The notes beneath the pieces are model-generated. The model searched no databases. It saw only the letters and a program-made list of their open reading frames with translations, and was not told where the DNA came from. Of a stretch of 64,000 bases of DNA, positions 3,871 through 27,240 are shown in pieces. The first letter of the stretch is position 1, and every line of letters begins with the position of its first letter. The DNA is from Patescibacteria group bacterium (GTDB taxonomy: Bacteria; Patescibacteriota; Saccharimonadia; UBA4664; SCTI01): contig SCTI01000001.1 of NCBI GenBank assembly GCA_004297735.1, positions 115,467-179,466 on the forward strand. Reading direction: 5' to 3'. Both the position numbers and the translations under genes were made by a program.

Positions 3871-6837
3871 TTAAGCTTCCTGCGAGACCGCCAAGCAGTC
3901 CCATTTACTATCGGCGCTGTTATATATGAACCCTAGGTAGTGCGTCTTACTAATAACGGTAGTTGTTGGCAAAGAGGTCCCAACCGCTCGGTAAATCGCA
4001 TTCCAGGCCAGAGATCTGGCAGTCCCATTATCTTTAATGCGGATAATTAGCGACTGGCCATCGGTTGGTGTCCCGGTTGGCGCGCCGAAGGTGGCGCCAA
4101 CCGCCAGGGCGGTCAGAAGGTAGACATCGGTAGTGTCGGCATTTGGCGTGGGAGTGGAGCTTGAGGTGTTGCTGGATATTCGCTTAGTGATACGCTTGTT
4201 GGTCAGGGTTTGGGTGGCATCGATGTTGGCTACCGAGTTAGCCGCCGTACCGGCCGCAGCAACAATTAGGTTGTCATCGGTCTTGAGGGTGTCGGCAGCT
4301 GAGCGATAAAGGTTGGTGTCAGCTGATGCTCCTTGGCCAAACAATATGCCAGCTCCGGGTGTAGCAGAAGCGGTTGCGCCAATGTAGACTTGGTTTGCGG
4401 TTCCGTTATTGGCGCTTAAATAAGATGCTGATAAAAACTGATCATCGGTTTTTAGGGTGTCAGCGGCGCTTCTATATAAGTTGGTGTCGGTTCCAAATGT
4501 AATACCACTAGCTGCCGTACCAGCGGTGCTACTTAACTGTAGTGTATATGTCGAAGCACCCGCGATACGTACCCCAATATTAGATGAACTACCAGCTGTT
4601 TGAGCTGCGACATCTACGCCATATAGATTGACGGGTACTATTGATCCCAAGCTTGGGGCAGATATATACATCGCTACTGCATTGGTTAGAACCCCGGAGT
4701 CAGTACCAGTGTCAATGCGATTAAACCCTGCGTAGGCAGTACCAATAGTCACTCCTGTAGGGGGAGTGCTTTTAGCAATATTAATAAACCCATACACCAC
4801 CGTTGGGTCGGTAGATGGCTTAAATTCGGGCTGTACCGCTAGGCCACCAGGACCAGCGGCGCTACCTGAAAAAATTGGGCTAACCTGCTGGCCTCTTGCG
4901 TTTGCTGTTGAGGTCGTAGTGGTGCCGGTAACAAGCATAAGTGTACTTGGGTTGGATGTAGGCTCAACACGGAGCATGTCATCTGTCTTTAAGACATCGG
5001 CCGCTGAACGGTAAAGGTTAGTGTCGGTTGCGCTGGCTCCACCGGCTCCCCACTCGTGCTTGCCATCGCCAAAAATTCGAAAGGCGGCGTTTGTATCACC
5101 GTTGATTAAATAGTTTGCTATAAATGCGGTTACAGCTGTTTGTGAACCTTGGAGCGCAACCGTTGTAGCTGTATCGGCAAAAAAACCAACAGCTGCGCGT
5201 AACCTGTCGTCGGTTTTTAAACTATCTGCTGCCGAGCGATACAGGTTGGTATCGGCACCGAACAAAATACCACCGGCAGCGGTTGTGGCACTATCAAACG
5301 TAAGGGCCGAACTAATCGTGGCGCTTGATCCGATTCGGACCTTACCGGAGTTATCGATTCGCATACGCTCGGTTACGGTCGTTGTGCCAGCGGGGGTGGT
5401 GTAGAAAGCCAGGCGTCCTGGCATGTCGGCAGCGGCCGGAGTGCCGTCAACCTCCGCCCGGATTAAGGCCGCAAAGGTGTTTGAGTTTGAGCCGTTAGCT
5501 CCAATAAAACTGATCTGACCAAGGTTATCGCCTGACTGCACAATTGTCGTGGAGCCATTGGCTGTTCCGCGCGATTTTACAAAATATATACCGGGCGGGT
5601 TGGCGTCGGCCGAGTTTCTGGTGGCGGATATGGTGGATCCAGCCGCATCGGTACCTTCTAATTGAAGTTGAGGAATTAGGCCGTTGATTGTTCTGAGAGT
5701 TGTATTGTTGTTGCTAATTAAGGTTGCGCCACTAGGATTGACCGTGATCAGCGATGTACCAGAGTACTGTAAACGATAAGCGGTTGTGGCGGCAGAGGTG
5801 ACATTAAGGCGAATACCAGAGGTATTATTGGTTGAAGTAAACTCCAGGATTGGTGCCGCTGCCGTAAAACGCAGAGTCCCGGTATTGGTCCGGGCAAAGG
5901 TGGAGTCGCCACCAAAAGAAAGACCCCCGCTGGTGCTTGCGTTATCGGGGAACAGTATTTGGGTGCTAGCCCCTGACATATTGAGGCTGCCATTCATGGT
6001 GTCGCCGGTATCATCCACCTTGCCAGCAATTGCACTGGTATTTGCCTTTAGGTCGAGTGCGGCCTGGGTGGCAGTTGAGATTGGTTTACTTAAGTCGGAG
6101 GTATTGTCGACATTGCCCAGGCCTACCGCCGACTTATCTAGCGTTTGCCAGCTTTTGTCGCCCCGCCAGTATTGAAGAGTAGTACCAGCGGTGATAGTTG
6201 GCTCTTTGCCGGCTAAGTCGCTGGTTAGATTGGCGACTTTTGCCTGGGCGATATTGGCGCCAACCGCTACCTCGGTGTCGGTTATGGCTAGCGCAATCTT
6301 GTTTTGAGAGATATTGGCCGAGTTTGATATATCAATATCGAGGATGGTGCTTGGGGCGATTTTGCCGGTAGTAACGGCATCGTCAGCCAGCTTAACCTCG
6401 GTGACCGATCCGTCAATAGGGGTTCGCGCGTTGGTCAAGCGTGAGTCGTCGCCTTTAACAACCTGGGTGGCCGTTGCATCACCGCTAGCGGCAACGTCTT
6501 TAGTGGCGGCGGTTCCCAGGCCCGAGACGTCATTGGTATCGAGTGTGACTGCCCCGGTCTTACCGGCGACACTGGTTACCGGTGCGCCTGGCGGGGCAGA
6601 CCATATACCATCGCCGCGCAAGTAGGTACCAGAGTTGGCAGCGCCGCCGCCAAGTTGACCGGCAACAACTAGCCCCCCGCCATCCAACTCAGCCACACCA
6701 CCAGGTTGGCCTTTTTGGGCAGCAGGAATAGGCTGAATCTTAAGTGAGCCATCATCATTATGCTCAACTTTTAAGAAATCATTAAGTAACTCACCCCATT
6801 GACCATTATCTGATCCTGGAATAGGTAAACGAGTCAT
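3871..6837 (-). CDS. Phage tail-fibre-like giant protein (988 aa): tail-fibre repeat motifs (GLGNVDNTSDLSKPIS, GDTMNGSLNMSG), 4x TNLYRSAADxLKTDD repeats, conserved N-terminal module shared with CDS 24159..26432
   Basis: Motifs read directly from the translation. Repeat copies at about nt 5250, 5022, 4485 and 4317. No N-terminal hydrophobic signal. Confidence 0.65.
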   Translation of the reverse strand: MTRLPIPGSDNGQWGELLNDFLKVEHNDDGSLKIQPIPAAQKGQPGGVAELDGGGLVVAGQLGGGAANSGTYLRGDGIWSAPPGAPVTSVAGKTGAVTLDTNDVSGLGTAATKDVAASGDATATQVVKGDDSRLTNARTPIDGSVTEVKLADDAVTTGKIAPSTILDIDISNSANISQNKIALAITDTEVAVGANIAQAKVANLTSDLAGKEPTITAGTTLQYWRGDKSWQTLDKSAVGLGNVDNTSDLSKPISTATQAALDLKANTSAIAGKVDDTGDTMNGSLNMSGASTQILFPDNASTSGGLSFGGDSTFARTNTGTLRFTAAAPILEFTSTNNTSGIRLNVTSAATTAYRLQYSGTSLITVNPSGATLISNNNTTLRTINGLIPQLQLEGTDAAGSTISATRNSADANPPGIYFVKSRGTANGSTTIVQSGDNLGQISFIGANGSNSNTFAALIRAEVDGTPAAADMPGRLAFYTTPAGTTTVTERMRIDNSGKVRIGSSATISSALTFDSATTAAGGILFGADTNLYRSAADSLKTDDRLRAAVGFFADTATTVALQGSQTAVTAFIANYLINGDTNAAFRIFGDGKHEWGAGGASATDTNLYRSAADVLKTDDMLRVEPTSNPSTLMLVTGTTTTSTANARGQQVSPIFSGSAAGPGGLAVQPEFKPSTDPTVVYGFINIAKSTPPTGVTIGTAYAGFNRIDTGTDSGVLTNAVAMYISAPSLGSIVPVNLYGVDVAAQTAGSSSNIGVRIAGASTYTLQLSSTAGTAASGITFGTDTNLYRSAADTLKTDDQFLSASYLSANNGTANQVYIGATASATPGAGILFGQGASADTNLYRSAADTLKTDDNLIVAAAGTAANSVANIDATQTLTNKRITKRISSNTSSSTPTPNADTTDVYLLTALAVGATFGAPTGTPTDGQSLIIRIKDNGTARSLAWNAIYRAVGTSLPTTTVISKTHYLGFIYNSADSKWDCLAVSQEA

Positions 6838-7910: not shown

Positions 7911-10900
7911 TTGGCACAGGCCACCGAGCGTCGATTCTTTAACAAAAACCGCGAAGTTATCGCACTACCAAATTTAATTCAAAATCAAATTGCCTCGTTT
8001 GAGTGGTTCACCACCGAAGGCCTTAAGGAGCTGTTTGCTTCGGTTAGTCCAATTGAGGACTTTACCGGTAAGAGCCTAGCGCTCTACTTTAAGGACTTTT
8101 ACTTTGAAGAGCCCAAGATCGATGAGGCTACCGCTAAAGGTAAGAACATAACCTACGAAGTGCCGCTTAAGGCAGTGGTTGAGCTGGTTAATAAAGAGAC
8201 CGGCGAGAAGAAGAGCCAGGAAATCTTTTTGGGTGACTACCCCTGGATGACCAGTAAGGGCACCTTCATCATTAATGGTGTTGAGCGAGTAGTGATTAGC
8301 CAGTTGGTTCGTTCACCTGGCGTATTCTTTGCTTCCGACATGGTTGGCGACGAGCACCTATTTGGCGCCAAGGTTATTCCAAGCCGTGGAGCTTGGTTGG
8401 AGTTCGATACCGCTCCAAACGGCGTGATTTCGGTCAAGATTGATCGTAAGCGCAAGCTGCCGGTTACCACTCTGTTGCGCGCCTTTGGATTTGCCGATGA
8501 TTCCGAAATTAAAAGTCTGTTTAAAGACGTTGATACCGGTGAGGTTAAGTACATCAATGAGACCCTCGATAAGGACGCTACCAGCAACATGAGCGAGGCC
8601 TTGATGGAGGTTTATCGCCGGATTCGTCCGGGTGATTTGGCTACCGTTGATAACTCAAAGCAGTTGATTGAAGGCATGTTCTTTGACCCTAAGCGTTACG
8701 ACTTTTCGAAGGTCGGTCGCTACAAGATTAACCGCCGATTTGGTACCAAGGTGCCAAACACGGTTGAAAACCGCATCTTCCGCCGTGAGGATTTGGTAGA
8801 CATCTTGCGCGAGATCATCCGTCTTAACAACGACCCTCAGGCTAAGCCAGAGGATATTGATGATCTGTCAAACCGTCGCTTGCGAATGGTTGGTGAGCTG
8901 ATTCAGGATCGTTTCCGAATTGGTCTTTTGCGCATGGAGCGCAACGTTAAGGATAAGATGAGCTTGTACGACCGCGAGACAGTTACCCCAGGTCAGCTGG
9001 TTAACGTTCGACCGGTAGTGGCTAGCGTTAAGGAGTTCTTTGCTAGCTCGCAGTTGAGCCAGTTTATGAACCAAACCAACCCACTAGCCGAGATTGCGCA
9101 CAAGCGACGCTTAACCGCGACCGGCGCCGGTGGTTTAAGCCGCGAACGAGCCGGTTTTGAGGTGCGCGATGTACACCGTAGTCACTATGGTCGTATCTGC
9201 CCAATTGAAACTCCCGAAGGTCCAAACGTTGGTTTGGTGTCCAACCTGGCTACTTATACTCAAGTTAATGAGTACGGCTTTTTGGAAACTCCTTATCGCA
9301 AGGTACTAAATGAGGTTCCGGCGGCTGAGGCGGCGGGGCATATTGCTCGAACCAACATCAAAGACTCTAGTGGCAGTGTGATCGTAAAGACGGGTGAGGT
9401 TATCACCGCAGCAGCAGCTAAAAAGCTAGCTAAGCTAGACAGCGAAATGGTGCCGGTTAAGGCTAAGGTTACCAGCGACGTGGTCTACTTGGATTCTGCC
9501 GACGAAGCCCAGGCTGCTATCACCGAAGCTTCAACCCCACTAAACGATGACAACTACTTTGCTGAAAGTCGCGTACCGGTTCGTCGTGGTGGCGAGACGG
9601 TTGAGGCCGACTCAAACTTGGTCAACTACATGGATGTATCAAGTAAGCAAATCATCTCGGTTTCAACCGCTTTGATTCCATTTATTGAAAACGATGACCC
9701 GAAGCGAGCGCTGATGGGCGCGAACATGCAGAAGCAGGCCGTTTCGCTAGTTAAGCCAGAGGCGCCAGTGGTTGGTACCGGTATGGAGGCGATTGTGGCT
9801 CGCGATTCAGGTCAGGTGATTGTGGCCGAAGAGGATGGCGAGGTGATTACCGCTACCGCCAGCAAGATCGTGGTTAAGTACAAGAAAAAGGGCGAGCAAA
9901 CCTACGAGCTGATTAAGTTTTCGCGCAGCAACGAAGGCACCAGTGTTAACCAAAAGGTAGTGGTAACCAGCGGTCAGAAGCTCAAGCAGGGTGACGTGTT
10001 GGCCGATGGTATGTCGACCGATAATGGTGAGCTGGCGCTGGGCCAGAACGTGCTGGTGGCATTCATGTCATGGGGTGGTTACAACTTTGAGGACGCCATC
10101 ATTATCAGCCAGCGGTTGGTACAGGATGATCGTTACAGCTCAATTCACATTGAGACCTACGAGGTCGACGTGCGTGACACCAAGCTGGGGCCGGAGATTG
10201 TTACTCGAGACATTCCAAACGTTAGCGAAGACAGCCTTAAAGACTTGGACGAAAACGGTGTGGTCCGCATTGGTGCGGAGGTTAGCGCCGGAGACATTCT
10301 AGTCGGCAAGATTACTCCTAAGGGTGAGCAAGAGCTGTCGAGCGAAGAGCGTTTGCTGCGAGCCATCTTTGGCGAAAAGGCCCGCGACGTTAAAGATACC
10401 AGCCTGCGGATGCCAAACGGCGAACGTGGTAAGGTGGTTGGCGTTAAGGTCTTTAGCCGCGAAAACGGTGACGAGCTACAGGCCGGAGTAATCGAGCAGT
10501 ATCACGTATCGGTAGCTCAGCTACGTAAAATGAGCGCCGGCGACAAGATGGCCGGACGCCACGGTAACAAGGGTGTGGTTGCTAAGGTTGTGCCAATCGA
10601 GGATATGCCATATCTCGATGATGGTACTCCAGTCGACATGATTTTGAACCCGCTTGGCGTAAGTTCACGTATGAACATCGGACAGGTGTTTGAGACTCAC
10701 CTGGGTCTTGCCGCTCGAGCGCTGGGTTACAACGTGGCTACACCAGCCTTTGACGGTGTTAACGTCGAAAAGATTAAAGAAGAGCTCAAGCGAGCCGGCC
10801 TCCCCGATGATGGTAAGTCGCAGCTGTTTGACGGTAAGACCGGCGAGCCGTTCCAGGAGCGAACTACGGTTGGTTACAAGTACATGCTTAAGCTCGACCA

Positions 10901-11441
10901 CATGGTTGACGACAAGCTGCATGCTCGCTCAACCGGCCCATACGCTATGGTGACTCAGCAGCCACTTGGCGGTAAGGCACAACGTGGTGGTCAGCGCTTT
11001 GGTGAGATGGAGGTGTGGGCACTCGAAGCTTACGGTGCCGCTAACACCCTGCAGGAAATCCTGACTATTAAATCAGACGACGTGGTTGGTCGCTCAAAGG
11101 CCTACGAGGCCATCATTAAGGGCGAAGAGATCCGCGGACCACGTATCCCCGAGTCATTCAACGTGTTGGTTAAGGAGTTGCAGAGCTTAGGTATGGCAAT
11201 CGACTTAATCCGCGAAGATGGCGGCGAGGAAAAAGAGCTGGATGCCGAAGAGGTACTAAGCGACCAAATTACGGCTGAAGCCAATGAACTAGGAAACGAT
11301 AAGTTAATGAAGGGTGATGAGGTAGCTGATATGCCGCTGGTTGATTTAGCTGGTGGGCAAGAAGATCCATTAGAGGTTGAGGCAGAGGTCGCTGCCGAAG
11401 CCGCTACTACAGACGCCGTAACTACGGAGCAAGAGGCCTAA
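7911..11441 (+). CDS. rpoB: DNA-directed RNA polymerase beta subunit
   Basis: Highly conserved RpoB motifs throughout. Start assigned to TTG 7911 (AAGGAGG at 7897-7903, 7-nt spacer) rather than the track ATG at 7851. Confidence 0.95.
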   Translation: MAQATERRFFNKNREVIALPNLIQNQIASFEWFTTEGLKELFASVSPIEDFTGKSLALYFKDFYFEEPKIDEATAKGKNITYEVPLKAVVELVNKETGEKKSQEIFLGDYPWMTSKGTFIINGVERVVISQLVRSPGVFFASDMVGDEHLFGAKVIPSRGAWLEFDTAPNGVISVKIDRKRKLPVTTLLRAFGFADDSEIKSLFKDVDTGEVKYINETLDKDATSNMSEALMEVYRRIRPGDLATVDNSKQLIEGMFFDPKRYDFSKVGRYKINRRFGTKVPNTVENRIFRREDLVDILREIIRLNNDPQAKPEDIDDLSNRRLRMVGELIQDRFRIGLLRMERNVKDKMSLYDRETVTPGQLVNVRPVVASVKEFFASSQLSQFMNQTNPLAEIAHKRRLTATGAGGLSRERAGFEVRDVHRSHYGRICPIETPEGPNVGLVSNLATYTQVNEYGFLETPYRKVLNEVPAAEAAGHIARTNIKDSSGSVIVKTGEVITAAAAKKLAKLDSEMVPVKAKVTSDVVYLDSADEAQAAITEASTPLNDDNYFAESRVPVRRGGETVEADSNLVNYMDVSSKQIISVSTALIPFIENDDPKRALMGANMQKQAVSLVKPEAPVVGTGMEAIVARDSGQVIVAEEDGEVITATASKIVVKYKKKGEQTYELIKFSRSNEGTSVNQKVVVTSGQKLKQGDVLADGMSTDNGELALGQNVLVAFMSWGGYNFEDAIIISQRLVQDDRYSSIHIETYEVDVRDTKLGPEIVTRDIPNVSEDSLKDLDENGVVRIGAEVSAGDILVGKITPKGEQELSSEERLLRAIFGEKARDVKDTSLRMPNGERGKVVGVKVFSRENGDELQAGVIEQYHVSVAQLRKMSAGDKMAGRHGNKGVVAKVVPIEDMPYLDDGTPVDMILNPLGVSSRMNIGQVFETHLGLAARALGYNVATPAFDGVNVEKIKEELKRAGLPDDGKSQLFDGKTGEPFQERTTVGYKYMLKLDHMVDDKLHARSTGPYAMVTQQPLGGKAQRGGQRFGEMEVWALEAYGAANTLQEILTIKSDDVVGRSKAYEAIIKGEEIRGPRIPESFNVLVKELQSLGMAIDLIREDGGEEKELDAEEVLSDQITAEANELGNDKLMKGDEVADMPLVDLAGGQEDPLEVEAEVAAEAATTDAVTTEQEA

Positions 11442-11442
11442 G

Positions 11443-15339
<3,897 letters not shown>

Positions 15340-16360: not shown

Positions 16361-18442
16361 ATGGCACGCGAATATAGTTTAGATAAAACTCGTAACATTG
16401 GCATCATTGCCCACATTGACGCTGGTAAAACCACCACTACCGAAGGTATTTTGTACCGTACCGGTAAGACTCACAAGATTGGTGAGGTTCATGAAGGCGA
16501 AGCCACCATGGACTGGATGGAGCAAGAGCAAGAGCGCGGTATTACCATTACCTCGGCTGCGACCACCTGTTTCTGGAACGATACTCGTATCAACATCATT
16601 GATACGCCGGGCCACATCGACTTTACCGTAGAGGTTGAGCGGTCTTTGCGCGTGCTCGACGGCGCGGTGACGGTGTTTGACGGCAAGATGGGTGTGGAGC
16701 CACAGTCGGAGACGGTTTGGCGTCAGGCCGACAAGTACGGCGTGCCTCGCATTTGTTTTATTAACAAGATTAACCAGACCGGCGGAGACTTTTACAAGAG
16801 TCTCGAGTCGATTCATGAGCGTTTGAGCAAGCGCGTCTACGCCATTCACCTGCCAATTGGTTTTGAGCAGAGCATCAACGGAATCGTTGATTTGGTTGAA
16901 ATGAAGGCCTTTACCTACGGCGACTACACCGACAAGGAGCTGAAAGAGGTTGAGATCCCAGCCGACATGAAGGAAAAGGTTGAACGCTACCGCAACCATT
17001 TGATTGAGGCGGCGGTTGAGGCCGATGACGACATGATGGAGAAGTATCTGGAAGGTAACGAGCTAACCGTTGAGGAGCTCAAGGGCTTGATCCGTAAGAG
17101 CGTGCTTTCGGGTGAGTTCTACGCCGTTAGTGGTGGCGATGGTCGCGGCGTGATTGTTGAAAAACTGCTTGATGCGGTGGTTGACTACCTACCAAGCCCG
17201 CTCGACGTTCCTCCAGTTACCGGTACCGATCCAAAGACCGGCGAGACCTTGCTGCGTAAAAGTAGCGACGAGGAGCCATTTTCGGCCCTCGCCTTTAAGA
17301 TTGCCGCCGACCCATTTGTTGGTAAGCTCGCCTTCTTCCGCGTTTACTCAGGTACGCTTAAGTCCGGTTCATACATTCTTAACTCAAGCACCGGCCAAAA
17401 GGAGCGCATCGGTCGAATCCTACGTATGCATGCCAACAGCCGCGAAGAAGTGCAAGAAGTGTACGCCGGTGAGATTGCCGCTGCCGTGGGTCTTAAGGGC
17501 ACCATGACCGGCCACACCATGAGCGATCAAGCTAACCCAATTATTCTTGAAAGCATCGAGTTCCCGGATCCAGTTATCCAGATCGCGATTGAGCCAAAGA
17601 CCAAGGCCGACCAAGAAAAGATGAGTTTAGCTCTCCAGCGCTTGGCCGAAGAGGATCCAACCTTCCGGGTTTCGACCAACCATGAGACCGGTCAGACCTT
17701 GATTGCCGGTATGGGTGAGCTTCACCTGGACATTTTGGTAGACCGCATGAAGCGTGAATTTAAGGTTGAGGCTAACATCGGTACACCACAGGTAGCGTAC
17801 CGTGAGACTATCCGCAAGCCGAATCAGGTTCAGGGCAAGTTTGTCCGTCAGTCGGGTGGACGCGGTCAGTATGGTGACGTCTGGCTAGAACTAACCCCAC
17901 AGGAGCCTGGTGCCGGCTTTGAGTTTGAAAACGCCATCGTTGGTGGTGTGATCCCACGCGAGTACATCAAGCCGGTCGAAGAGGGCGTTAAAGAGGCCAT
18001 GCAAAACGGCGTGTTGGCTGGCTACCCGGTAGTCGACATCAAGGCCAAGTTATACGACGGCTCGTACCACGATGTTGACTCCAGTGAAATGGCCTTTAAG
18101 ATTGCCGGTTCAATGGCGCTGCAAGAGGGTGTACGCAAGGGCGATCCAGTTATGTTGGAGCCGGTAATGAAGGTCGAGGTAACCGTACCAGAAGAGTTTA
18201 TGGGCGACGTAATTGGTGACATCAACTCCAAGCGTGGTCGTATCCAAGAAATGACCGATCGTGGTCAGGCCAAGGTGGTTCAGGCCTTTGTGCCACTGGC
18301 TGAGATGTTTGGTTATACCACTACCTTACGTTCGATGACCCAGGGCCGTGCCTCAAACTCAATGGAGTTTGATCACTACGCCGAGGTCCCACCTAACGTA
18401 GCCGAGGATATTATCGGCAAGCACGCCGCTTCTAAAGCCTAA
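16361..18442 (+). CDS. fusA: Elongation factor G
   Basis: G-domain [17 protein letters not shown]; 693 aa. Confidence 0.97.
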
Positions 18443-18637
18443 GCGGCGGCTTCCGATTTACCTCTTTACAGAGGCGGAAATTCCTCCTATACTATGAGGG
18501 TCCGTTTTGGGCAGTTACTCTATTGCCTAAAATATTTAACAACTAATAAATGTTTCATTGCAGATCGCTGACTCTAGTCGCGACACCCTCGATTGGCAGG
18601 GTTAACAATCTGAAATGAAACAATAAAAGGAGAACCA

Positions 18638-19813
18638 ATGGCAGAATTTCAGCGAACCAAGCCCCACGTCAACGTTGGTACTATGGGTCACGTCGATCAC
18701 GGTAAAACTACCCTGACCGCTGCGATCACCACCGTATTGGCTAAGCGCTTGCCAGATGATATTAACAAGCCGGTTAATTACGACCAGATTGATAACGCTC
18801 CCGAAGAGAAGCAGCGCGGTATTACCATCGCCACCTCTCACCAGGAGTACAACAGCGAAAAGCGACACTACGCTCACGTTGATATGCCAGGTCACGCCGA
18901 CTACGTAAAGAACATGATTACCGGCGCTGCCCAGATTGATGGTGCTATCCTGGTAGTTAGTGCGGCTGACGGCCCAATGCCTCAGACCCGCGAGCACATC
19001 TTGCTGGCAAAGCAGGTTGGTGTTCCTTACATCCTCGTGTTCATGAACAAGATGGATATGGCCGATCCAGAGCTAGCCGAGCTAGTTGAGATGGAAATCC
19101 GCGAACTGTTGGCAGCTCAGGGCTTTGACGAGAATGCCCCAGTGATTAAGGGCTCGGCTCTAAAGGCGCTGGAAGGCGACAAAGAGTACGAGGATAAGAT
19201 CATGGAGCTGGTTGAAGCAATGGATGCTTCGATCCCAGAGCCAAAGCGTGAAGTTGATAAGCCGTTCATGATGGCCATTGAGGATGTGTTCTCAATTAAG
19301 GGCCGTGGTACGGTTGCTACCGGTCGCATCGATCAGGGCAAGTTGGCAGTAAACGACGAGGTTGAAATCGTTGGTATTCGCCCAACCAAAAAGACCACCG
19401 TTACCGGCGTAGAGATGTTCAAGAAGTTGCTACCTGATGCTCAGGCTGGTGACAACATTGGCGCCTTGCTCCGCGGTATTGAGCGAACCGATATTGAGCG
19501 CGGTCAGGTATTGGCCAAGCCAGGTTCAATCACTCCCCACACCGAGTTTGATGCTGAGGTTTACGTACTAAAGAAGGAAGAGGGCGGACGCCACACCCCA
19601 TTCTTTAAGGGCTACAAGCCACAGTTTTACATCCGAACCACCGATGTTACCGGCGAGATTCAGTTTGAAGGCGAAATGGTGATGCCGGGCGACAACGTTC
19701 AGATGAAGGTTAAGCTGATCGCTCCGATCGCCATGGAAGATGGCCTCCGCTTCGCTATTCGCGAGGGTGGACGCACCGTTGGAGCCGGAGTCGTAACTAA
19801 GATTACCAAGTAA
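18638..19813 (+). CDS. tuf: Elongation factor Tu
   Basis: [17 protein letters not shown]; 391 aa. Confidence 0.97.
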
Positions 19814-19822
19814 CACAGAACC

Positions 19823-20146
19823 ATGACCAAAGAAGACGCACCTAAACAACGAATTCGCATCCGCTTAAAGGCCTACGATAACAAGGTTATCGACCAGTCG
19901 GCCAAGCAGATTCTTGATACCGCTATTCGCACCGGCGCTAAGGTTGCGGGGCCAATTCCGCTCCCAACCGACCGCAAGGTGACCACGGTCATCAAGAGCC
20001 CGCACGTCTTTAAAAAGGGACGAGAGCAGTTTGAGATGCGAACTCACAAGCGGCTATTAGACATCACCGAGCCAACCCCACGAACCGTTGACTCGCTGAT
20101 GAACCTCAATTTGCCAGCTGGCGTCGATATTGAAATCAAGATGTAG
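19823..20146 (+). CDS. rpsJ: 30S ribosomal protein S10
   Basis: 107 aa with the S10 signature RIRLKAYD. Confidence 0.95.
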
Positions 20147-20167
20147 CCATTAAGGCTGATCGCAAAG

Positions 20168-20196
20168 AAGTCCCGAAAGGGGCTTTTTTGTTTTTA
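20168..20196 (+). terminator. Rho-independent terminator after rpsJ
   Basis: aagtccc-gaaa-ggggctt stem-loop followed by tttttgttttt. Confidence 0.6.
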
Positions 20197-21551: not shown

Positions 21552-22019
21552 ATGGCTAGACCAACACAGCGGCGAGTGTATCGCCAAGCTAGTGGCAATC
21601 AAAACCTCGCTAGTCGCTATAATAGCCGTCGCTGGTATGAAATTCCCGACTGGGCAAAGGTTTGGGTGGTGGATAATGCCGGATGGGTTACCGCTATCAT
21701 TGCGCTGGTTTTATTCCCACCGACTTTGCTAGCGCTGGTATTGGGGGTGTACCGACTGCCCTTCCTCGATTTTTTGGGTGTACCGACCAGCGCCAATGGG
21801 CTTGGTTTGGCCGCCGCGGTCTTAATTATTAAATTTATTTTTGTGGTGGCAGCGATCCGGCCGCTATTTAAACGAGAAATAAAGGGCTGGTATTTCCTGG
21901 TTGCCGCCGCCACTGTCCACTTGGCGCATAGTGTGATCCTCCAGCACGCTATTACTGGTACGGCAGTGCTATTGGGTACGGTGTATCTCTACGTTATGGT
22001 GCGCCGTCGATATCACTAA
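21552..22019 (+). CDS. Small membrane protein, paralog A of a tandem pair
   Basis: 155 aa. Shares the motifs W.V...W......LVLF.P..LLAL..G....PF and LF.R..I.GW with the next gene. Confidence 0.55.
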   Translation: MARPTQRRVYRQASGNQNLASRYNSRRWYEIPDWAKVWVVDNAGWVTAIIALVLFPPTLLALVLGVYRLPFLDFLGVPTSANGLGLAAAVLIIKFIFVVAAIRPLFKREIKGWYFLVAAATVHLAHSVILQHAITGTAVLLGTVYLYVMVRRRYH

Positions 22020-22082: not shown

Positions 22083-22532
22083 ATGGCAACCTCCCAACCA
22101 CCAAAAGAGCTAATGGGATGGCTTGAATATTATTTAGTGACCAAGGCTCCGTTTCAGATCCCGCCCAACGCGCGTGAGTGGATTGTAAAATATAGCCCCT
22201 GGATTAACATCGTACTGTTAGTATTGTTCGCACCGGCAATTTTGCTTGCACTAGGAGTTGGAGCGGCGTTGGTGCCATTTAGTGCGGTCGGGGGAGCGAG
22301 TGCAGCCACCGGACTATCTTTTGCGCTGGTAGCCCTGGTGCTTCAAGTTGGCTTGATGATCGCTGCCCTACCTGGTTTGTTTGCGCGCAAAAAGATTGGT
22401 TGGCAACTGGTATTTTATAGTGTGGTGCTGAACCTGATCTTTAGCCTCCTTAACTTTAATATTGTTGGCGGTTTACTCAGCGCGGTATTAGGGTCATACG
22501 TTCTGTTCCAGATCAAGTCCTACTACAAATAG
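22083..22532 (+). CDS. Small membrane protein, paralog B of a tandem pair
   Basis: 149 aa. See the paralog at 21552..22019. Confidence 0.55.
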   Translation: MATSQPPKELMGWLEYYLVTKAPFQIPPNAREWIVKYSPWINIVLLVLFAPAILLALGVGAALVPFSAVGGASAATGLSFALVALVLQVGLMIAALPGLFARKKIGWQLVFYSVVLNLIFSLLNFNIVGGLLSAVLGSYVLFQIKSYYK

Positions 22533-22598: not shown

Positions 22599-23807
22599 AT
22601 GAGTTTGTTTGCCAAAAATACGTCGCCACTTGCCGATCGGATGCGCCCCTCGAGCCTTGACGAGGTGGTGGGGCAGGACCATGTGGTCGGCCCCGATGGG
22701 TTGTTGCGACAGATGCTTGAGTCCGGCAAAATTGGCTCGCTTATCTTGTGGGGGCCTCCAGGAACCGGCAAAACAACCTTGGCCCGCATTATGGCGGCTC
22801 ACGAGGGGTACGCTTTTGAGGAGCTTTCGGCGGTAACCTCCGGCCTGCCCGAGGTCCGCAAGGTCATGGAGCGGGCTCGCCAGCGGCAGGCGATGGGGCA
22901 GTCAACCATTCTGTTCGTGGATGAGATCCACCGTTTCAATAAGGCCCAGCAAGATGCTTTTTTGCCGCACATTGAAGACGGCACAATTATTTTAATTGGG
23001 GCCACCACCGAAAACCCATCGTTTGAGGTTATTTCACCACTGCTTTCACGCGCGCGAGTGGTGGTATTAAAGTCGCTAACTAAAGATCAGCTTGAGTTGC
23101 TACTCGACCGCGCCGCCGATAACCTTGAGGGCGCAACCGTCACGCCGGAAGCAGTTGAGTTATTGGCTGAACTGGCGGCGGGAGATGCTAGGGTCGCATT
23201 AGGTGGGCTGGAGGCGGCTGCCACCCTAGAGCCAAAGGTAACGCCTGCTACCGTGCGCAACGCCATGCAAAAAACTAGCTTGCGCTACGACAAGGGTGGG
23301 GAGTTCCATTACAATTTAATATCGGCCTATATTAAATCGATGCGCGGAGGCGCGATTGATGCGGCCTTATTTTACCTAGCTCGCATGTTGGAGGCGGGCG
23401 AGGATCCAAAGTTTATTGCGCGCCGAATTGTCATATTTGCCTCCGAAGACATTGGTCTGGCCGACAACAACATGCTCTTACTGGCAACATCGACTTTTCA
23501 GGCAATTGAGCGAATTGGCATGCCGGAAGGTCGTATTATCTTGAGTCAGGCCACCATCGCTATGTGCCAAGCGCCTAAAAATCGTGACGCTTATAACGCT
23601 ATTGGTGCGGCTAGCCAGGCGGTTCGTCAACATCCTGCCGCCGAGCCACCAGCGCACTTACGCAACGCCCCAACCAAGCTAATGAAGGAGTTGGGGTATG
23701 GCAAAGAAACAAAATGGGAGCCTGGATTTAAGCACCCCAAGGGTTTTATGCCCGAAGGCTTAGATGACCTTACGCTATATTCGCCGGATAACACTAGTAA
23801 GCATTAG
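22599..23807 (+). CDS. rarA: Replication-associated recombination protein A (AAA+ ATPase RarA/MgsA)
   Basis: Walker A LWGPPGTGKTT, FVDEIHRFNK, and the C-terminal MgsA domain. Confidence 0.9.
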   Translation: MSLFAKNTSPLADRMRPSSLDEVVGQDHVVGPDGLLRQMLESGKIGSLILWGPPGTGKTTLARIMAAHEGYAFEELSAVTSGLPEVRKVMERARQRQAMGQSTILFVDEIHRFNKAQQDAFLPHIEDGTIILIGATTENPSFEVISPLLSRARVVVLKSLTKDQLELLLDRAADNLEGATVTPEAVELLAELAAGDARVALGGLEAAATLEPKVTPATVRNAMQKTSLRYDKGGEFHYNLISAYIKSMRGGAIDAALFYLARMLEAGEDPKFIARRIVIFASEDIGLADNNMLLLATSTFQAIERIGMPEGRIILSQATIAMCQAPKNRDAYNAIGAASQAVRQHPAAEPPAHLRNAPTKLMKELGYGKETKWEPGFKHPKGFMPEGLDDLTLYSPDNTSKH

Positions 23808-23830: not shown

Positions 23831-24082
23831 ATGGCTCGAACTATTAAGTCGACAAACACAGAGTACGACAGCGTTTATTTTTTGAAGGTGTTGTTGTATC
23901 TAGTTTTGGCAACAACCTGGCTAGCCCCTTCTGGCCATCGCTATGTACCGGTTGGCCTTATTATTGGTGTGATTATAGTTCAGCACGAACGCTTCCAGAT
24001 TGATCGAAAGATAGAATATGCGGTGATGTTGGTTGGAGCGGTGCTTGGTTTGGTGGGTATTGGTATTACTATTTCGATTTAG
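23831..24082 (+). CDS. Small 2-TM membrane protein, hypothetical
   Basis: ORF track, 83 aa, hydrophobic. Confidence 0.4.
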   Translation: MARTIKSTNTEYDSVYFLKVLLYLVLATTWLAPSGHRYVPVGLIIGVIIVQHERFQIDRKIEYAVMLVGAVLGLVGIGITISI

Positions 24083-24158
24083 CCCCACCTCCTTATTGCC
24101 CTTACGCTTACATCCAGCTACAATAAGTAACAAGTTAAGTGTGAGTTAATTAGCATTC

Positions 24159-26432
24159 ATGGCCCGTCTCCCAACAATAGGAAGCGATAACGGTAATTGG
24201 GGAGCTATCCTCAATGACTACTTGTCTCAAGAACTAAACTCAGATGGCTCCCTTAAGATCCGTACCGATGGCACACTATCCTCAGCTGTAGCTGACGGTT
24301 CCATTACAGCCTCTAAACTCTCACCCACCGTTAACAACTATCTAGCTTCCGCCCAAACTGCTGTACAGAGTGTTAACGGTAAGGCTGGTACCGCTGTAAC
24401 TCTAGCTGCCGCAGATATCTCGGGCGTGGTACCCTCCACTCAGTTAGGAGCAGCCTCCGGCGTAGCCACCTTAGACGGCTCAAGCAAGCTTACTAGTAGT
24501 CAAATACCAGCAACGGTGTCGACAGCGAGTGGTGGCAGTGACGGCCAGATTTCGGTAGTTTCAGGTGGTTTGTTCACGCTCAAGGACCCTTCGGTAATAG
24601 ATATAACAATGCCGCCATACAACGCCGACCCAACCGGCACTACTGATGCTTCAGCAGAGTTTCAGGCTGCAATAAATGCACTTTATTCAGCCGGCGGCGG
24701 CACTATATACGCCCCAACCGGCACGTACTTATTTTCTAATACGCAAATGTCATGGCGGACCAAAGTATCTTTAAGGGGTGATGGACCTGGGCAAACTATT
24801 TTTAAAATGGTTGGCTGGGGAGGGTCATTAATTGAAAAGGGCAATAGCTATGCTTCGCCAATGAAGGATTGTACGTTCTCCGACTTTGAGGTTGATGGCT
24901 CACTTATTGATGGTCGAGTTTGTTCTGCGACAAATGGTTCAGCGACGATTACGAGCGCTGGGCATGGATTGAGCAACGGTGACGCTGTTCGCTGGGCAAG
25001 CGGTCTTGCTCCTACCAACTTCACCGCACTTACAACAGCGTATTATGTTGTCAACAAGACAACCGATACATTCCAGCTGTCGGCGACACTTAACGGTGCG
25101 GCAATTAACGCTGGGTCAACTGGCGGTGCATATAAAACCTTTACGACAGCAAAGGCAATCTATACCACATATAACGTCCGTAACCGTTACGTTAACCTGT
25201 ATGTTCACGACACCACTGCAACCGGCCTGGGAGTCGATTTTCTTGTCGATTGCGCTTTTGACCGGTGCGTTGTCGAAAATGCCGGGCGCGACTCAGGCGG
25301 GAGCCTATTGGGCTCTTCGGGGATTGGCATTGGCACCGGAGCTTGGGATGTCGAAAGCACCACTATTACCGACTGCATAATTCGTAGCAGCGCACGTAAT
25401 GGAATATTTTTCGAAAGGCAGGCCACATTGCCTAACGGTGGAGGGTCGGGCGGAACCCCATATTATAGCCGCGGAGCCATAGTCCATGGTAATACAATCA
25501 TTGCTTGCAAGTATGGTATTGCGGATAACGGAATAGAAGGGGCCCAAATTTGGGGTAATAGGATCGAAGACAGCACCTCCTACGGTTTTTATGTTGGTGC
25601 CGGGAACGCGGGCACAGCAGGGCGCAAGGGTAAGTTTTTTAAGAACATTGTTAAAAACTCTACCAGTTATGGTATTTACCTTGATGCCAGTACGACAACA
25701 TTGTCTGGCTATGAGATCAGTTCGAATGACGTTTATGAAAACGATATTGGAATTAAGGTCGCGTCGTCTGCGGCTGTACCGGAGCTAATTATTACCGATA
25801 ATGATGTTCGCAGTAACGAACGGCAGGGTATGCACGGTGGTGGTTCCGGAGCACTTACCGACGCTACCGTTATTGGCAACAGGTTTTTTAATAACGGCAC
25901 CGTTACCACCAATGCCGGTCTGGAACTAACAATGGACCTAACCCGATGTCGTATAAATCGCAATCGTGCGTTTGACAACCAGGGCGTAAAGACGCAGAGT
26001 ACGGGGGTTATTTTATCGGGCACCAATATTGCTGGGGGTGAGATCATGGATAATGATGTTATAGGTAACTCGGGGACAGGTTTAAGCATCACCAATGATA
26101 CTCAGAGCGGGTGTCTGGTTCGTCGAAATCGAGGCGCAACAACGTATCGCCAGGCTACCGCTACATCAGCGACGATGCGCCTAAACGCCGAAGTGCTTGC
26201 CGTAACCGACACATCGGCATTGCGTACCATTACTCTTCCTGGTGCTTCGGGTTTGCCGGTTGGTTCGCGAATTACGGTAAAGGACGAAAGTAATGCAGCT
26301 GGAACCAACAATATTACAATTCAGCGTGCTGGTTCGGATACGATTGATGGATCGACATCGACTACCATATCGACCAACAGTGGTTCGAAGTCATTTTATA
26401 CCGATGGATCCACTAAGTGGTTTAGCGTCTAA
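24159..26432 (+). CDS. Tailspike/depolymerase-like protein (757 aa): N-terminal module shared with CDS 3871..6837, tail-fibre-like repeat (VNGKAGTAVTLAAADISGV), then a pectate-lyase-3-type right-handed beta-helix
   Basis: PPYNADPTGTTDASAEFQAAINALYSAGGGTIYAPTGTYLF resembles the start of the Pectate_lyase_3 domain. Downstream are multiple parallel beta-helix repeats (IHGNTIIACKYGIADNG, IEDSTSYGFYV, IVKNSTSYGIYLD, ITDNDVRSNE...). Confidence 0.65.
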   Translation: MARLPTIGSDNGNWGAILNDYLSQELNSDGSLKIRTDGTLSSAVADGSITASKLSPTVNNYLASAQTAVQSVNGKAGTAVTLAAADISGVVPSTQLGAASGVATLDGSSKLTSSQIPATVSTASGGSDGQISVVSGGLFTLKDPSVIDITMPPYNADPTGTTDASAEFQAAINALYSAGGGTIYAPTGTYLFSNTQMSWRTKVSLRGDGPGQTIFKMVGWGGSLIEKGNSYASPMKDCTFSDFEVDGSLIDGRVCSATNGSATITSAGHGLSNGDAVRWASGLAPTNFTALTTAYYVVNKTTDTFQLSATLNGAAINAGSTGGAYKTFTTAKAIYTTYNVRNRYVNLYVHDTTATGLGVDFLVDCAFDRCVVENAGRDSGGSLLGSSGIGIGTGAWDVESTTITDCIIRSSARNGIFFERQATLPNGGGSGGTPYYSRGAIVHGNTIIACKYGIADNGIEGAQIWGNRIEDSTSYGFYVGAGNAGTAGRKGKFFKNIVKNSTSYGIYLDASTTTLSGYEISSNDVYENDIGIKVASSAAVPELIITDNDVRSNERQGMHGGGSGALTDATVIGNRFFNNGTVTTNAGLELTMDLTRCRINRNRAFDNQGVKTQSTGVILSGTNIAGGEIMDNDVIGNSGTGLSITNDTQSGCLVRRNRGATTYRQATATSATMRLNAEVLAVTDTSALRTITLPGASGLPVGSRITVKDESNAAGTNNITIQRAGSDTIDGSTSTTISTNSGSKSFYTDGSTKWFSV

Positions 26433-26450
26433 CAATACAAACGTTACCTG

Positions 26451-26480
26451 TTGACACCTGATGGTTTTTACTGATATAGT
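26451..26480 (+). promoter_or_regulatory. Sigma70-like promoter re-initiating the S10/spc block (TTGACA -18- TATAGT)
   Basis: ttgaca at 26451-26456 and tatagt at 26475-26480. A roughly 110-nt leader follows before rplC. Confidence 0.45.
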
Positions 26481-26592
26481 TGTCGGGTAACTTTAGCTCA
26501 ATGTATTGGGAGCTATCCGCTAGGAGATGAGCAGGTCTGCACTTAGCAGAAACCGTTCAGATCCTAGAATTATTTTTTGTTTAAGGAACGTA

Positions 26593-27240
26593 ATGAAAGC
26601 ACTGCTTGGCCGAAAACTTGGTATGACTCAACTGTTTGATGAAAACGGTACGGTTTCGCGTGTCACCATCGTGGAGACTGGCCCTTGCGTGATTACTCAA
26701 GTAAAAACCGGTGCTCGTGATGGCTACAGCGCAGTACAGCTTGGCTTTGGTAGTGACAAGCATCCATCCAAGCCGTTAGCCGGCCACGCTAGCGTTGACG
26801 GTATTACTCCTAAGCACTTTAGAGAGGTTCGCATGGACCAAGACGTAGCCGACATCGAGGCGGTGGAAGGTGACGAAGCCAAGACTCAGGTTAAGGTTGG
26901 TGCCAAGTTGGACGTGACTACCTTTGAGGTCGGAGATGCGGTAGAGGTAACCGGCACCAGCAAGGGCAAGGGATTTGCCGGCACCATTAAGCGTCACAAC
27001 TTTCACCGCGGGCCAATGAGTCACGGTTCGCACAACCACCGCGCACCGGGTTCGATTGGGGCGATGTACCCACAGCACGTATTTAAGGGCATTAAGATGG
27101 CCGGCCAGATGGGTGGCGACAAGGTGACAACCAAGGGTCTTAAGATCGTCCAGGTTGACGCCGAAAACAACCTGCTGGCAATTAGCGGCGCAATCCCCGG
27201 TCCGCGCAAGGGCATCGTAATGATTCGAGGAGCCAAGTAA
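26593..27240 (+). CDS. rplC: 50S ribosomal protein L3
   Basis: MKALLGRKLGMTQLFDENG...; start moved to ATG 26593 (AAGGA RBS) from the track start 26527. Confidence 0.95.
   Translation: MKALLGRKLGMTQLFDENGTVSRVTIVETGPCVITQVKTGARDGYSAVQLGFGSDKHPSKPLAGHASVDGITPKHFREVRMDQDVADIEAVEGDEAKTQVKVGAKLDVTTFEVGDAVEVTGTSKGKGFAGTIKRHNFHRGPMSHGSHNHRAPGSIGAMYPQHVFKGIKMAGQMGGDKVTTKGLKIVQVDAENNLLAISGAIPGPRKGIVMIRGAK

Follow-up and report, generated by a model that had tools for sequence, protein, structure and literature searches.

A phage-tailspike-like protein encoded between rpsJ and rplC of a probable Saccharibacterium belongs to a multigene family with a conserved N-terminal module

The 64,000-nucleotide (nt) stretch of DNA analysed here (the window) covers positions 115,467 to 179,466 of the 273-kb contig SCTI01000001.1 from the Patescibacteria group bacterium assembly GCA_004297735.1, and our subject is a gene on its forward strand that encodes a tailspike-like protein of 757 amino acids (aa). 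A first-pass annotation, made from the letters alone, had taken positions 24159-26432 for an intact open reading frame (ORF), and such a frame is present: it runs through 757 codons from an ATG start with zero internal stops, and the opposite strand is full of stops. The deduced protein is identical to TAK89633.1, which NCBI lists as 'hypothetical protein EPO04_00800 [Patescibacteria group bacterium]' and which forms a singleton at the 90% identity cluster level of a collection of about 15 billion proteins. The gene lies between rpsJ (19823-20146) and rplC (26527-27240), together with six other genes on the same strand; the gap between the two ribosomal protein genes holds a DUF308 membrane protein, a 164-aa ORF, membrane ORFs of 155 and 149 aa, MgsA, an 83-aa membrane ORF and the tailspike-like gene itself. 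On the left flank we found ORFs that match rpoB and rpoC in size, ORFs that resemble rpsL and rpsG by homology to a related locus (L108), EF-G, EF-Tu and rpsJ; on the right, rplC is followed by rplD, rplW, rplB and then further ORFs of the ribosomal cluster. The gene order around 24159-26432 is repeated in an independent Logan assembly of run SRR8426595, which shows that the arrangement is not an artefact of the metagenome-assembled genome (MAG); an assembly artefact was ruled out on this ground as the source of the rpsJ-rplC arrangement.

Local alignments to homologs, family scans and a structure model resolved five modules in the 757-aa protein, which is a mosaic of an N-terminal module, a tail-fibre shaft, a beta-helix, a domain inserted into that helix and a gp10-like C-terminus. 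The gene and its modules are as follows.

24159 to 26432, forward strand: the tailspike-like gene, 757 aa (TAK89633.1, EPO04_00800), from the ORF listing, its translation and the exact NCBI match.
24159 to 24263, forward strand: conserved N-terminal module MARLPTIGSDNGNWGAILNDYLSQELNSDGSLK, residues 1-35; the family signature, from alignments and genome scans.
24264 to 24590, forward strand: tail-fibre-type shaft with SVNGK.../GVATLDGSSKLTSSQIP repeats, residues ~36-144, from tblastn and PHROGs.
24591 to 24905, forward strand: N-cap and first rungs of the beta-helix (PF12708), residues 145-249, ending at the conserved D246; from PF12708, phrog_2234, the AlgE matches and the model.
24906 to 25145, forward strand: inserted domain of ~80 aa, residues 250-329, with the motif HGLSNGD...YYV.N.TTDTFQLS, from alignment columns and HMMER.
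25146 to 26138, forward strand: main body of the right-handed parallel beta-helix, residues 330-660, ~12 rungs, with the conserved residues K332, R341, H350, D351, D360, R377, E419, Q421 and D456.
26139 to 26429, forward strand: C-terminal beta-sandwich-like module, residues 661-757, related to T4 gp10 and to N-terminal domains of the CBA120 tailspike, from a PDB profile search and phrog_20556.

The N-terminal module has the consensus MARLPxxGxDxGxWGxxLNDYL, in which R3, L4, P5, G8, D10, W14, G15, L18, N19, L22 and G30 do not vary across alignments of 22 and of 84 members. We define the MARLP family by the pattern M-x-R-L-P-x2-G-x-D-x3-W-G-x2-L-N-x2-L at the extreme N-terminus, with a fibre and enzyme part of variable content behind it; the 757-aa protein has this layout and all of the invariant positions (11 of 11). 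A profile search with residues 1-35 found no relative in the PDB, and the first ~35 residues had no match in cultured-phage records at E<=1e-3 (tblastn). The profile search of a homolog collection with this module returned only fragments of at most 105 aa.

Behind this module, the first-pass annotation had noted repeats of the tail-fibre type, and homology bears this out. Residues 45-133 of the shaft matched 30 cultured-phage records at 41-67% identity in a tblastn search of 50,697 records, with Streptomyces phages making up 25 of the 30; the genes matched are annotated as minor tail, tail fibre or tailspike proteins, and the shaft also matches tail fibre and minor tail families of PHROGs. Residues 1-125 of the 757-aa protein share 70-82% identity with the N-termini of SGNH-domain proteins of ~800 aa (P0003-P0013). 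In the monomer structure model, the predicted local distance difference test score (pLDDT) of the shaft is low to moderate.

When the full-length protein was scanned against Pfam there were zero matches even at E<=1, and piecewise scans were required. Scanned alone, residues 140-260 matched PF12708 (Pect-lyase_RHGA_epim, formerly Pectate_lyase_3) over residues 154-232 with 39.6 bits (E 6e-10; gathering threshold 27 bits), in agreement with the Pectate_lyase_3-type N-cap first read there; residues 140-665 still gave 35 bits, above the threshold. The match is limited to the N-cap and the first rungs (profile positions 7-86 of 213). NosD scored 44.6 bits on the beta-helix rungs in the piecewise scan, residues 145-249 match phrog_2234 (tail spike), and AlgE4 and AlgE6 align with residues 150-240 at the sequence level (E ~1e-6, ~17% identity).

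Structure prediction, proposed at the outset as the check on a beta-helix, yielded one. The single-sequence AlphaFold2 model (pLDDT 35.5) was discarded in favour of a model built from a 138-sequence alignment, which reached a mean pLDDT of 80.8 and a predicted template modelling score (pTM) of 0.74. The beta-helix (residues 145-249 and 330-660) comprises ~14-15 rungs at a pLDDT above 90 nearly throughout, with values of 84-98 for residues 145-249. Foldseek comparisons against the PDB and against viral models (BFVD) support the beta-helix and place it in the pectin lyase-like fold. The nearest solved structures are AlgE4, AlgE6 and an alginate epimerase/lyase, and PfbA has the same fold; the structural matches in BFVD stem mostly from phages of other hosts, but they include phages of Rhodococcus, Arthrobacter, Gordonia and Corynebacterium.

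A set of polar residues is conserved along the helix in the 138-sequence alignment, namely D246 (132/137), K332 (129/136), R341 (92/137), H350 (78/137), D351 (72/137, with N in a further 38), D360 (128/133), R377 (112/133), E419 (130/138), Q421 (113/132) and D456 (87/137), and the 757-aa protein retains 10 of these 10. D360 aligns to residue 178 of AlgE4, which we take to be a residue of its catalytic site. The catalytic motif YG(F/I)DPH(D/E) of AlgE is absent; neither DPH nor YG[FI]DP occurs anywhere in the 757-aa sequence. If this motif is taken as residues 149-155 of AlgE4, the conserved K332 falls on its rung, by the offset from the D360 alignment. Since a conserved Lys/Arg/His set stands together with Asp and Glu residues on successive rungs of an AlgE4/PL6-like fold, the sequence points to a lyase- or epimerase-type reaction on an acidic glycan more than to hydrolysis of the GH28 type.

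The inserted domain interrupts this helix between D246 and K332, both of which rank among the best-conserved residues in the helix family, and sits beside the putative active-site rungs. Its columns are occupied in only 2-6 of the 138 aligned sequences, and nearly all of the best 150 of 6,894 HMMER homologs match as two stretches (150-250 and 330-660) without it. The insert module is mobile: a 1,667-aa protein (P0098) contains 11 tandem matched stretches of it, and several other proteins carry 2-3 copies. It has a weak likeness to the endosialidase beta-barrel (PF12195 at E 1.4e-3, below the cut-off; PDB 4hiz at E 0.11). Transcription activator-like (TAL) effectors, the top PDB profile matches, were rejected as relatives of the insert, for these matches are spurious sums of a short 'HGL..' repeat.

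Profile searches of the PDB with the C-terminal module retrieved 'Tailspike protein' entries (7rfv/7rfo/7rej, residues 99-174, E 7e-5), which we take to be fragments of a phage CBA120 tailspike, and the T4 baseplate protein gp10 (5hx2_G, E 4e-3). The module further matches phrog_20556 ('baseplate protein') and is modelled at a pLDDT of 70-85. At least 11 copies of it are found in a protein of 3,238 aa (P0104), and in a protein of only 131 aa (P0200) the N-terminal motif is joined directly to the gp10-like C-terminal module. Taken side by side, P0200, P0104 and P0098 show free recombination among the N-terminal, gp10-like and insert modules. Every module of the 757-aa protein that was tested fits the architecture of phage tailspikes and depolymerases named in the first-pass annotation.

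That the protein lacks a signal peptide, as had been stated from its letters, agrees with hydropathy: no hydrophobic N-terminus is present, and the N-terminal windows reach a maximal Kyte-Doolittle mean of -0.08. We found no transmembrane segment either (the highest 19-residue Kyte-Doolittle mean is 1.16), and neither an LPXTG nor a twin-arginine motif occurs in the sequence.

The N-terminal module defines a multigene family that is present in viral tail modules and in the chromosomes of Saccharibacteria. Relatives of the module are encoded by 368 stretches when one genome is taken per GTDB species. The best 76 of these 368 loci belong mostly to MAGs of Saccharibacteria, Saccharimonadales, Nanosynbacter or Microsaccharimonas, closed chromosomes included, with up to 5 family loci from one genome; the remaining few are labelled Actinobacteria (Microbacterium, Sinomonas, Labedella), Chloroflexi or 'Parcubacteria'. 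Family members measure between 66 and 1,291 aa, with truncated ORFs and members from viral contigs counted. A Pfam census of 84 members found GDSL_2 (GDSL/SGNH esterase) in 14, PF12708 in 13, Collagen triple helix in 12, Beta_helix in 10, DUF5907 in 8, BppL_N (lactococcal phage) in 5 and PTR (phage tail repeat) in 4, and, in addition, DUF2961, CBM5/12, Phage_tail_C and the endosialidase N-terminal extension. Judged by these matches, the domain content of the family is the repertoire of phage receptor-binding proteins.

At 26 loci on viral contigs, the N-terminal module heads tail proteins, with 36-61% identity over ~33 aa. On one such contig (L005), the family gene follows the genes for the major head, the major tail and the tape measure protein, and on another (L017) it stands between a tail protein and a tail fibre. 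The viral contigs that carry the module range from 34 to 70% in G+C content, which indicates that phages of many hosts use it.

The cellular loci look different. The first-pass annotation had left room for homologs that occur solely within intact prophages; instead, members were found beside tRNA synthetases, L32/NusB, FtsA/RuvX and tig/clpP. P0004, for instance, lies between YceD/L32/NusB and the leucyl-tRNA synthetase with a paralog 4 kb away, and P0010 between the alanyl-tRNA synthetase and FtsA/RuvX/YceG. The commonest neighbour of a family gene is another family member (21 of 76 loci). The 136 ORFs that adjoin family genes match 120 Pfam families, of which the 25 most frequent are mostly housekeeping and include zero phage families. 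As far as these neighbourhoods tell, the context of the family in cellular genomes is not that of a prophage. A second member is encoded in the window itself.

3871 to 6837, reverse strand: 988-aa tail-fibre-like family member (MTRLPIPGSDNGQWGELLNDFL..., TAK89618.1), from a motif search, tblastn and matches to tail fibre PHROGs along its whole length.

This gene is 17 kb away from the tailspike-like gene, and its product carries repeated 'TNLYRSAADxLKTDD' motifs. Together with a Thr/Ser/Gly-rich ORF of 622 aa (2002-3870, reverse strand), it separates tig (trigger factor) from clpP, two genes that commonly form an adjacent pair in bacteria. The 622-aa ORF had no family match, and the NCBI annotation contains only a 236-aa fragment of it. 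The idea of a domesticated enzyme, raised at first reading, stands insofar as the protein is tailspike-like and its setting cellular; it does not stand as that of a lone gene, given the large modular family, the tail proteins on viral contigs and the second member in the window.

Two further observations concern the spread of the family. A 370-kb contig (L001) holds two paralogs 4 kb apart, one of 795 aa at 10001-12388 on the forward strand (P0004) and one of 792 aa at 16784-19162 on the reverse strand. P0011, a 792-aa protein from a related 20-kb contig, is near-identical to P0004 over the first ~85 residues and different in its C-terminal part; provided that the 792-aa ORF of L001 is P0011, this pattern may point to gene conversion, or to an exchange of cassettes, inside one genome. 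Two loci labelled as actinobacterial, one of Sinomonas cellulolyticus (L054, 7998-11361) and one of an Actinomycetes MAG (L078, 7974-13553) combine a family gene with a prepilin-like ORF, the former also with a GDSL-like ORF. The prepilin-like N-terminus GFTIVELLIVIVVIAILAAI of these two loci is near-identical to pilin-like ORFs in Saccharibacteria loci, and the N-termini of nearby ORFs resemble, by eye, an AAA/OLD-type ATPase and a UvrD-type helicase. A horizontally transferred island might account for these two loci, and so might foreign DNA in the assemblies.

In the full-text literature that was searched, whose coverage is incomplete, we found no description of the MARLP family or of tail-fibre-like proteins of Saccharibacteria. 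The supplements of a transposon-sequencing study of Saccharibacteria mention no tail-fibre annotation (PMC10633639).

Four further features lie on the forward strand in the region from rpsJ to rplC.

20157 to 20196, forward strand: hairpin with U-run resembling an intrinsic terminator, right after rpsJ (dG -19.7 kcal/mol, z -4.17).
23831 to 24082, forward strand: 83-aa membrane ORF directly upstream of the tailspike-like gene, with a 51%-identical homolog in the rpsJ-rplC gap of a related locus (L110).
24096 to 24124, forward strand: weak promoter-like site TTGCCC-17-TACAAT, within the 76 nt of spacer that precede the tailspike-like gene (consensus match, 9/12).
26451 to 26480, forward strand: strong promoter-like site TTGACA-18-TATAGT with TG, between the stop codon of the tailspike-like gene and rplC (consensus 11/12).

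None of 200 shuffles folded as well as the rpsJ hairpin, which a consensus scan had missed, probably as its U-run pairs into the stem. The site before rplC is the best sigma-70-like site of a 7-kb scan, and the weak one lies 35 nt upstream of the start codon of the tailspike-like gene. The distance from rpsJ to rplC is 6.4 kb here versus 0-190 nt in most of ~60 other metagenome loci with both genes. In the four closest relatives (L108-L111, with S10 proteins 78-87% identical) this junction is variable: one has no rplC within 9 kb and one has none within 5.9 kb, a third has a gap of 859 nt that holds a homolog of the 83-aa ORF, and a fourth one of 1,772 nt. Because of the predicted terminator behind rpsJ, the promoter-like site before rplC and the variable junction in the relatives, the tailspike-like gene is probably transcribed separately and not on the ribosomal transcript. 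The first-pass annotation had placed it inside the S10 operon; its position between rpsJ and rplC holds, and its membership in the operon probably does not, as the sequence predicts an internal terminator and promoter in place of uninterrupted co-transcription from the rpsJ promoter. We propose that the gene owes its place in this gap only to the junction being variable in the clade; the rpsJ-rplC context recurred in 0 of 106 family loci.

Other contents of the gap are recorded here for their own sake. The 83-aa ORF had no Pfam or PHROG match; its identification as a holin was dropped, with no support from PHROG, Pfam or NCBIfam and no homolog adjoining other family members. The 155- and 149-aa ORFs (21552-22019 and 22083-22532, forward strand) resemble paralogous multi-pass membrane proteins without family assignment, and a homolog of the 149-aa ORF with 39% identity adjoins a family member at another locus (L087). 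The MgsA/RarA recombination protein (22599-23807, forward strand; PF12002, E 8.5e-51) is oddly located within the gap between rpsJ and rplC. The start of rplC is ambiguous between 26527 (237 aa, first ATG) and 26593 (215 aa, the start chosen for the Logan assembly), so that its leader behind the promoter-like site measures 47 or 113 nt; it has no significant structure (z -1.0).

The absence of capsid, terminase and integrase genes nearby, remarked upon at first reading, was confirmed for the neighbouring ORFs that were scanned: among these flanking ORFs, a selection from ~78 ORFs of the window, no capsid, terminase, tape-measure or integrase family was matched, and they are housekeeping genes or membrane proteins without assigned function. 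The tailspike-like gene thus does not stand in a phage tail-gene module; it is flanked by MgsA, the 83-aa membrane ORF and rplC. No integrase, repeat or tRNA boundary was seen near it, and the nearest tRNAs are 17 kb away. Across the window, Rfam found four tRNAs only, and no ribosomal leader near the gene. The G+C content near the gene is 0.46-0.51, against a window mean of 0.51.

Cultivated Saccharibacteria grow on Actinobacteria (PMC10633639), and it has been proposed that glycans of the host are the targets of essential envelope proteins which carry glycan-binding domains (PMC10633639). Host attachment by epibiotic Patescibacteria has so far been linked to type IV pili and to a small number of envelope proteins that bind glycans (PMC10633639; PMC11623550). 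Against this background, we read the tailspike-like gene, with a probability of roughly one half, as that of a phage receptor-binding protein co-opted as an ordinary chromosomal gene whose product binds or cleaves a surface glycan. A phage-derived receptor-binding protein would have been kept as a normal chromosomal gene of a probable Saccharibacterium (TM7). By analogy with its phage relatives, the 757-aa protein would form a trimeric fibre or spike; the groove of its beta-helix would bind a bacterial surface polysaccharide and probably cleave or modify it, and the inserted domain and the C-terminal module may add binding specificity. The conserved N-terminus could dock the fibre to a shared cellular partner, or direct export by a non-Sec route. 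The envelope of the actinobacterial host would be the most plausible target, because cultivated Saccharibacteria live on Actinobacteria and the phage relatives of the shaft are mostly Streptomyces phages; the family would then be an exchangeable host-recognition and penetration set for the epibiont.

In Saccharibacteria, the family genes occur several per genome in the better-sampled cases, have interchangeable C-termini of enzymatic or binding type (SGNH esterase, beta-helix, collagen, BppL_N, CBM5/12), and lie among housekeeping genes, often in tandem. A more far-reaching version of the same idea, to which we attach only tentative credence, makes the family a cellular toolkit of Saccharibacteria: a shared N-terminal docking or export module would bear swappable glycan heads, partly exchanged with actinophages, that set which hosts are recognised or breached, and the proteins would reach the surface by a route that is free of signal peptides.

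Several findings weigh against co-option. The best non-self match to the 757-aa protein has 37% identity and there is no close ortholog. The enrichment of the family in Saccharibacteria is partly one of sampling, because the search pattern was derived from Saccharibacteria-like sequences. For the window, too, a place in Saccharibacteria is assigned only indirectly, as the NCBI name goes no further than 'Patescibacteria group bacterium'. PfbA, with the same fold, is a non-enzymatic adhesin, and by analogy the beta-helix may have a purely adhesive role. The pLDDT of the insert is low in the monomer model, so that its modelled fold is tentative. The weakest point is the export route: sequence motifs and hydropathy place the protein outside the Sec/Tat-secreted and sortase-anchored classes, and among the family loci we found no conserved neighbouring export or anchor gene. 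A link to type IV pilin genes was dropped, for prepilin-like ORFs are not enriched near family genes (0.18 per 10 kb within 3 kb versus 0.12 per 10 kb further off; 7 versus 6 ORFs). A link to Tat was likewise abandoned; TatA/TatC adjoin few members, at about chance level by a rough estimate, and the N-terminus has no twin-arginine signal.

The missing export signal is also consistent with assembly in the cytoplasm, and the fibre might be supplied in trans to a phage, a satellite or a tail-like particle encoded elsewhere, with its N-terminus serving as baseplate adaptor and with release by lysis. On viral contigs, the N-terminal module heads proteins of tail modules, directly after the tape measure, and its strict conservation across unrelated C-termini points to a single shared docking partner; the C-terminal module, moreover, was matched to proteins of T4 and CBA120, in which the gp10-like module builds branched fibre assemblies. 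We nevertheless regard such a particle as unlikely. The family members inspected showed no neighbouring gene for tail, baseplate, capsid or lysis functions, and the scanned ORFs of the window include none; tail-like particles are unreported for Saccharibacteria in the literature searched, and several such genes in a genome of ~1 Mb without particle genes nearby would be unusual. A functionless phage leftover (a decayed prophage, a moron or a recent transfer) would account for a mosaic in which every module has phage relatives, and for a singleton gene without ortholog at a variable junction. It appears to us less probable again, since the frame of 757 codons is intact with all family-conserved polar residues kept, the G+C content is host-like, and integrase, repeat and tRNA boundary were not found nearby; that many genomes of Saccharibacteria carry the family, in varied housekeeping contexts and with an invariant N-terminus, argues for selection.

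The target might also lie on the bacterium itself, in its extracellular polysaccharide or cell wall and not in the envelope of the host, with the 757-aa protein as a remodelling enzyme akin to AlgE. Such a role would suit the nearest solved structures (AlgE4, AlgE6 and the alginate epimerase/lyase) and the alignment of D360 to AlgE4 residue 178, and the extracellular polysaccharide of Saccharibacteria is thought to be relevant to host interaction (PMC10633639). Yet the motif YG(F/I)DPH(D/E) is missing, with a conserved Lys on its rung, the tail-fibre modules of the N-terminus and the gp10-like module of the C-terminus belong to receptor-binding proteins and not to AlgE-type enzymes, and other family members bear many different binding and esterase domains. 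This is the least probable of the explanations considered. Co-option of a phage receptor-binding protein accordingly remains the reading that we prefer.

For the way in which ultrasmall epibiotic Patescibacteria choose their hosts and attach to them, the family offers concrete candidates for determinants of host range that are open to test in genetically tractable Saccharibacteria. It is possibly a case in which a cell co-opts the host-recognition parts of a phage without the rest of the tail, and it raises the questions of what the invariant N-terminal module binds and by which route the proteins leave the cell. Should the family members turn out to serve a phage in trans, or to be inert relics, the gain would be a better annotation for a large set of 'hypothetical proteins'.

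Among known systems, the phage tailspikes and depolymerases (the tailspike proteins of P22, HK620, Sf6, Det7 and CBA120, and those of Klebsiella and Acinetobacter phages) are encoded by phage genes, whereas the gene described here has housekeeping surroundings in a reduced cellular genome. Its N-terminal module differs from the P22-type and T7 gp17-type anchors and has no PDB relative, and the protein, known here from its sequence and a monomer model, has an extra domain inserted into the helix, which is unusual among the beta-helix tailspikes and depolymerases to whose kind it belongs. With the minor tail proteins of actinobacteriophages (the Streptomyces phages Vash, Heather, Caelum, Diane and others) it has the SVNGK.../GVATLDGSSKL..QLP region in common at 41-67% identity; this likeness is confined to ~50-90 residues, and the phage versions lie in virion tail modules. 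AlgE-type enzymes have R-modules and a type I secretion signal. From the A-modules of the mannuronan C-5 epimerases AlgE4 and AlgE6 and from PL6-type alginate lyases, the 757-aa protein differs in having neither the YG(F/I)DPH(D/E) motif nor R-modules, and in an identity of ~17%. The beta-helix adhesin PfbA of Streptococcus pneumoniae has a signal peptide and an LPXTG motif, and the 757-aa protein has neither.

PblA and PblB of the Streptococcus mitis phage SM1 are signal-less tail-fibre proteins that are reused as surface adhesins after lysis, and they set a precedent for tail-fibre proteins that act on a bacterial surface without an export signal. They belong to an intact prophage whose lysis genes free them, whereas no prophage or lysis genes were found near the gene studied here. 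By its location outside a tail module, the 757-aa protein departs from the phage tailspikes, and by its motifs from AlgE; the family to which it belongs is apparently an undescribed, multi-copy chromosomal set of receptor-binding proteins in a reduced epibiont genome, and the 757-aa protein probably works in the manner of a phage tailspike.

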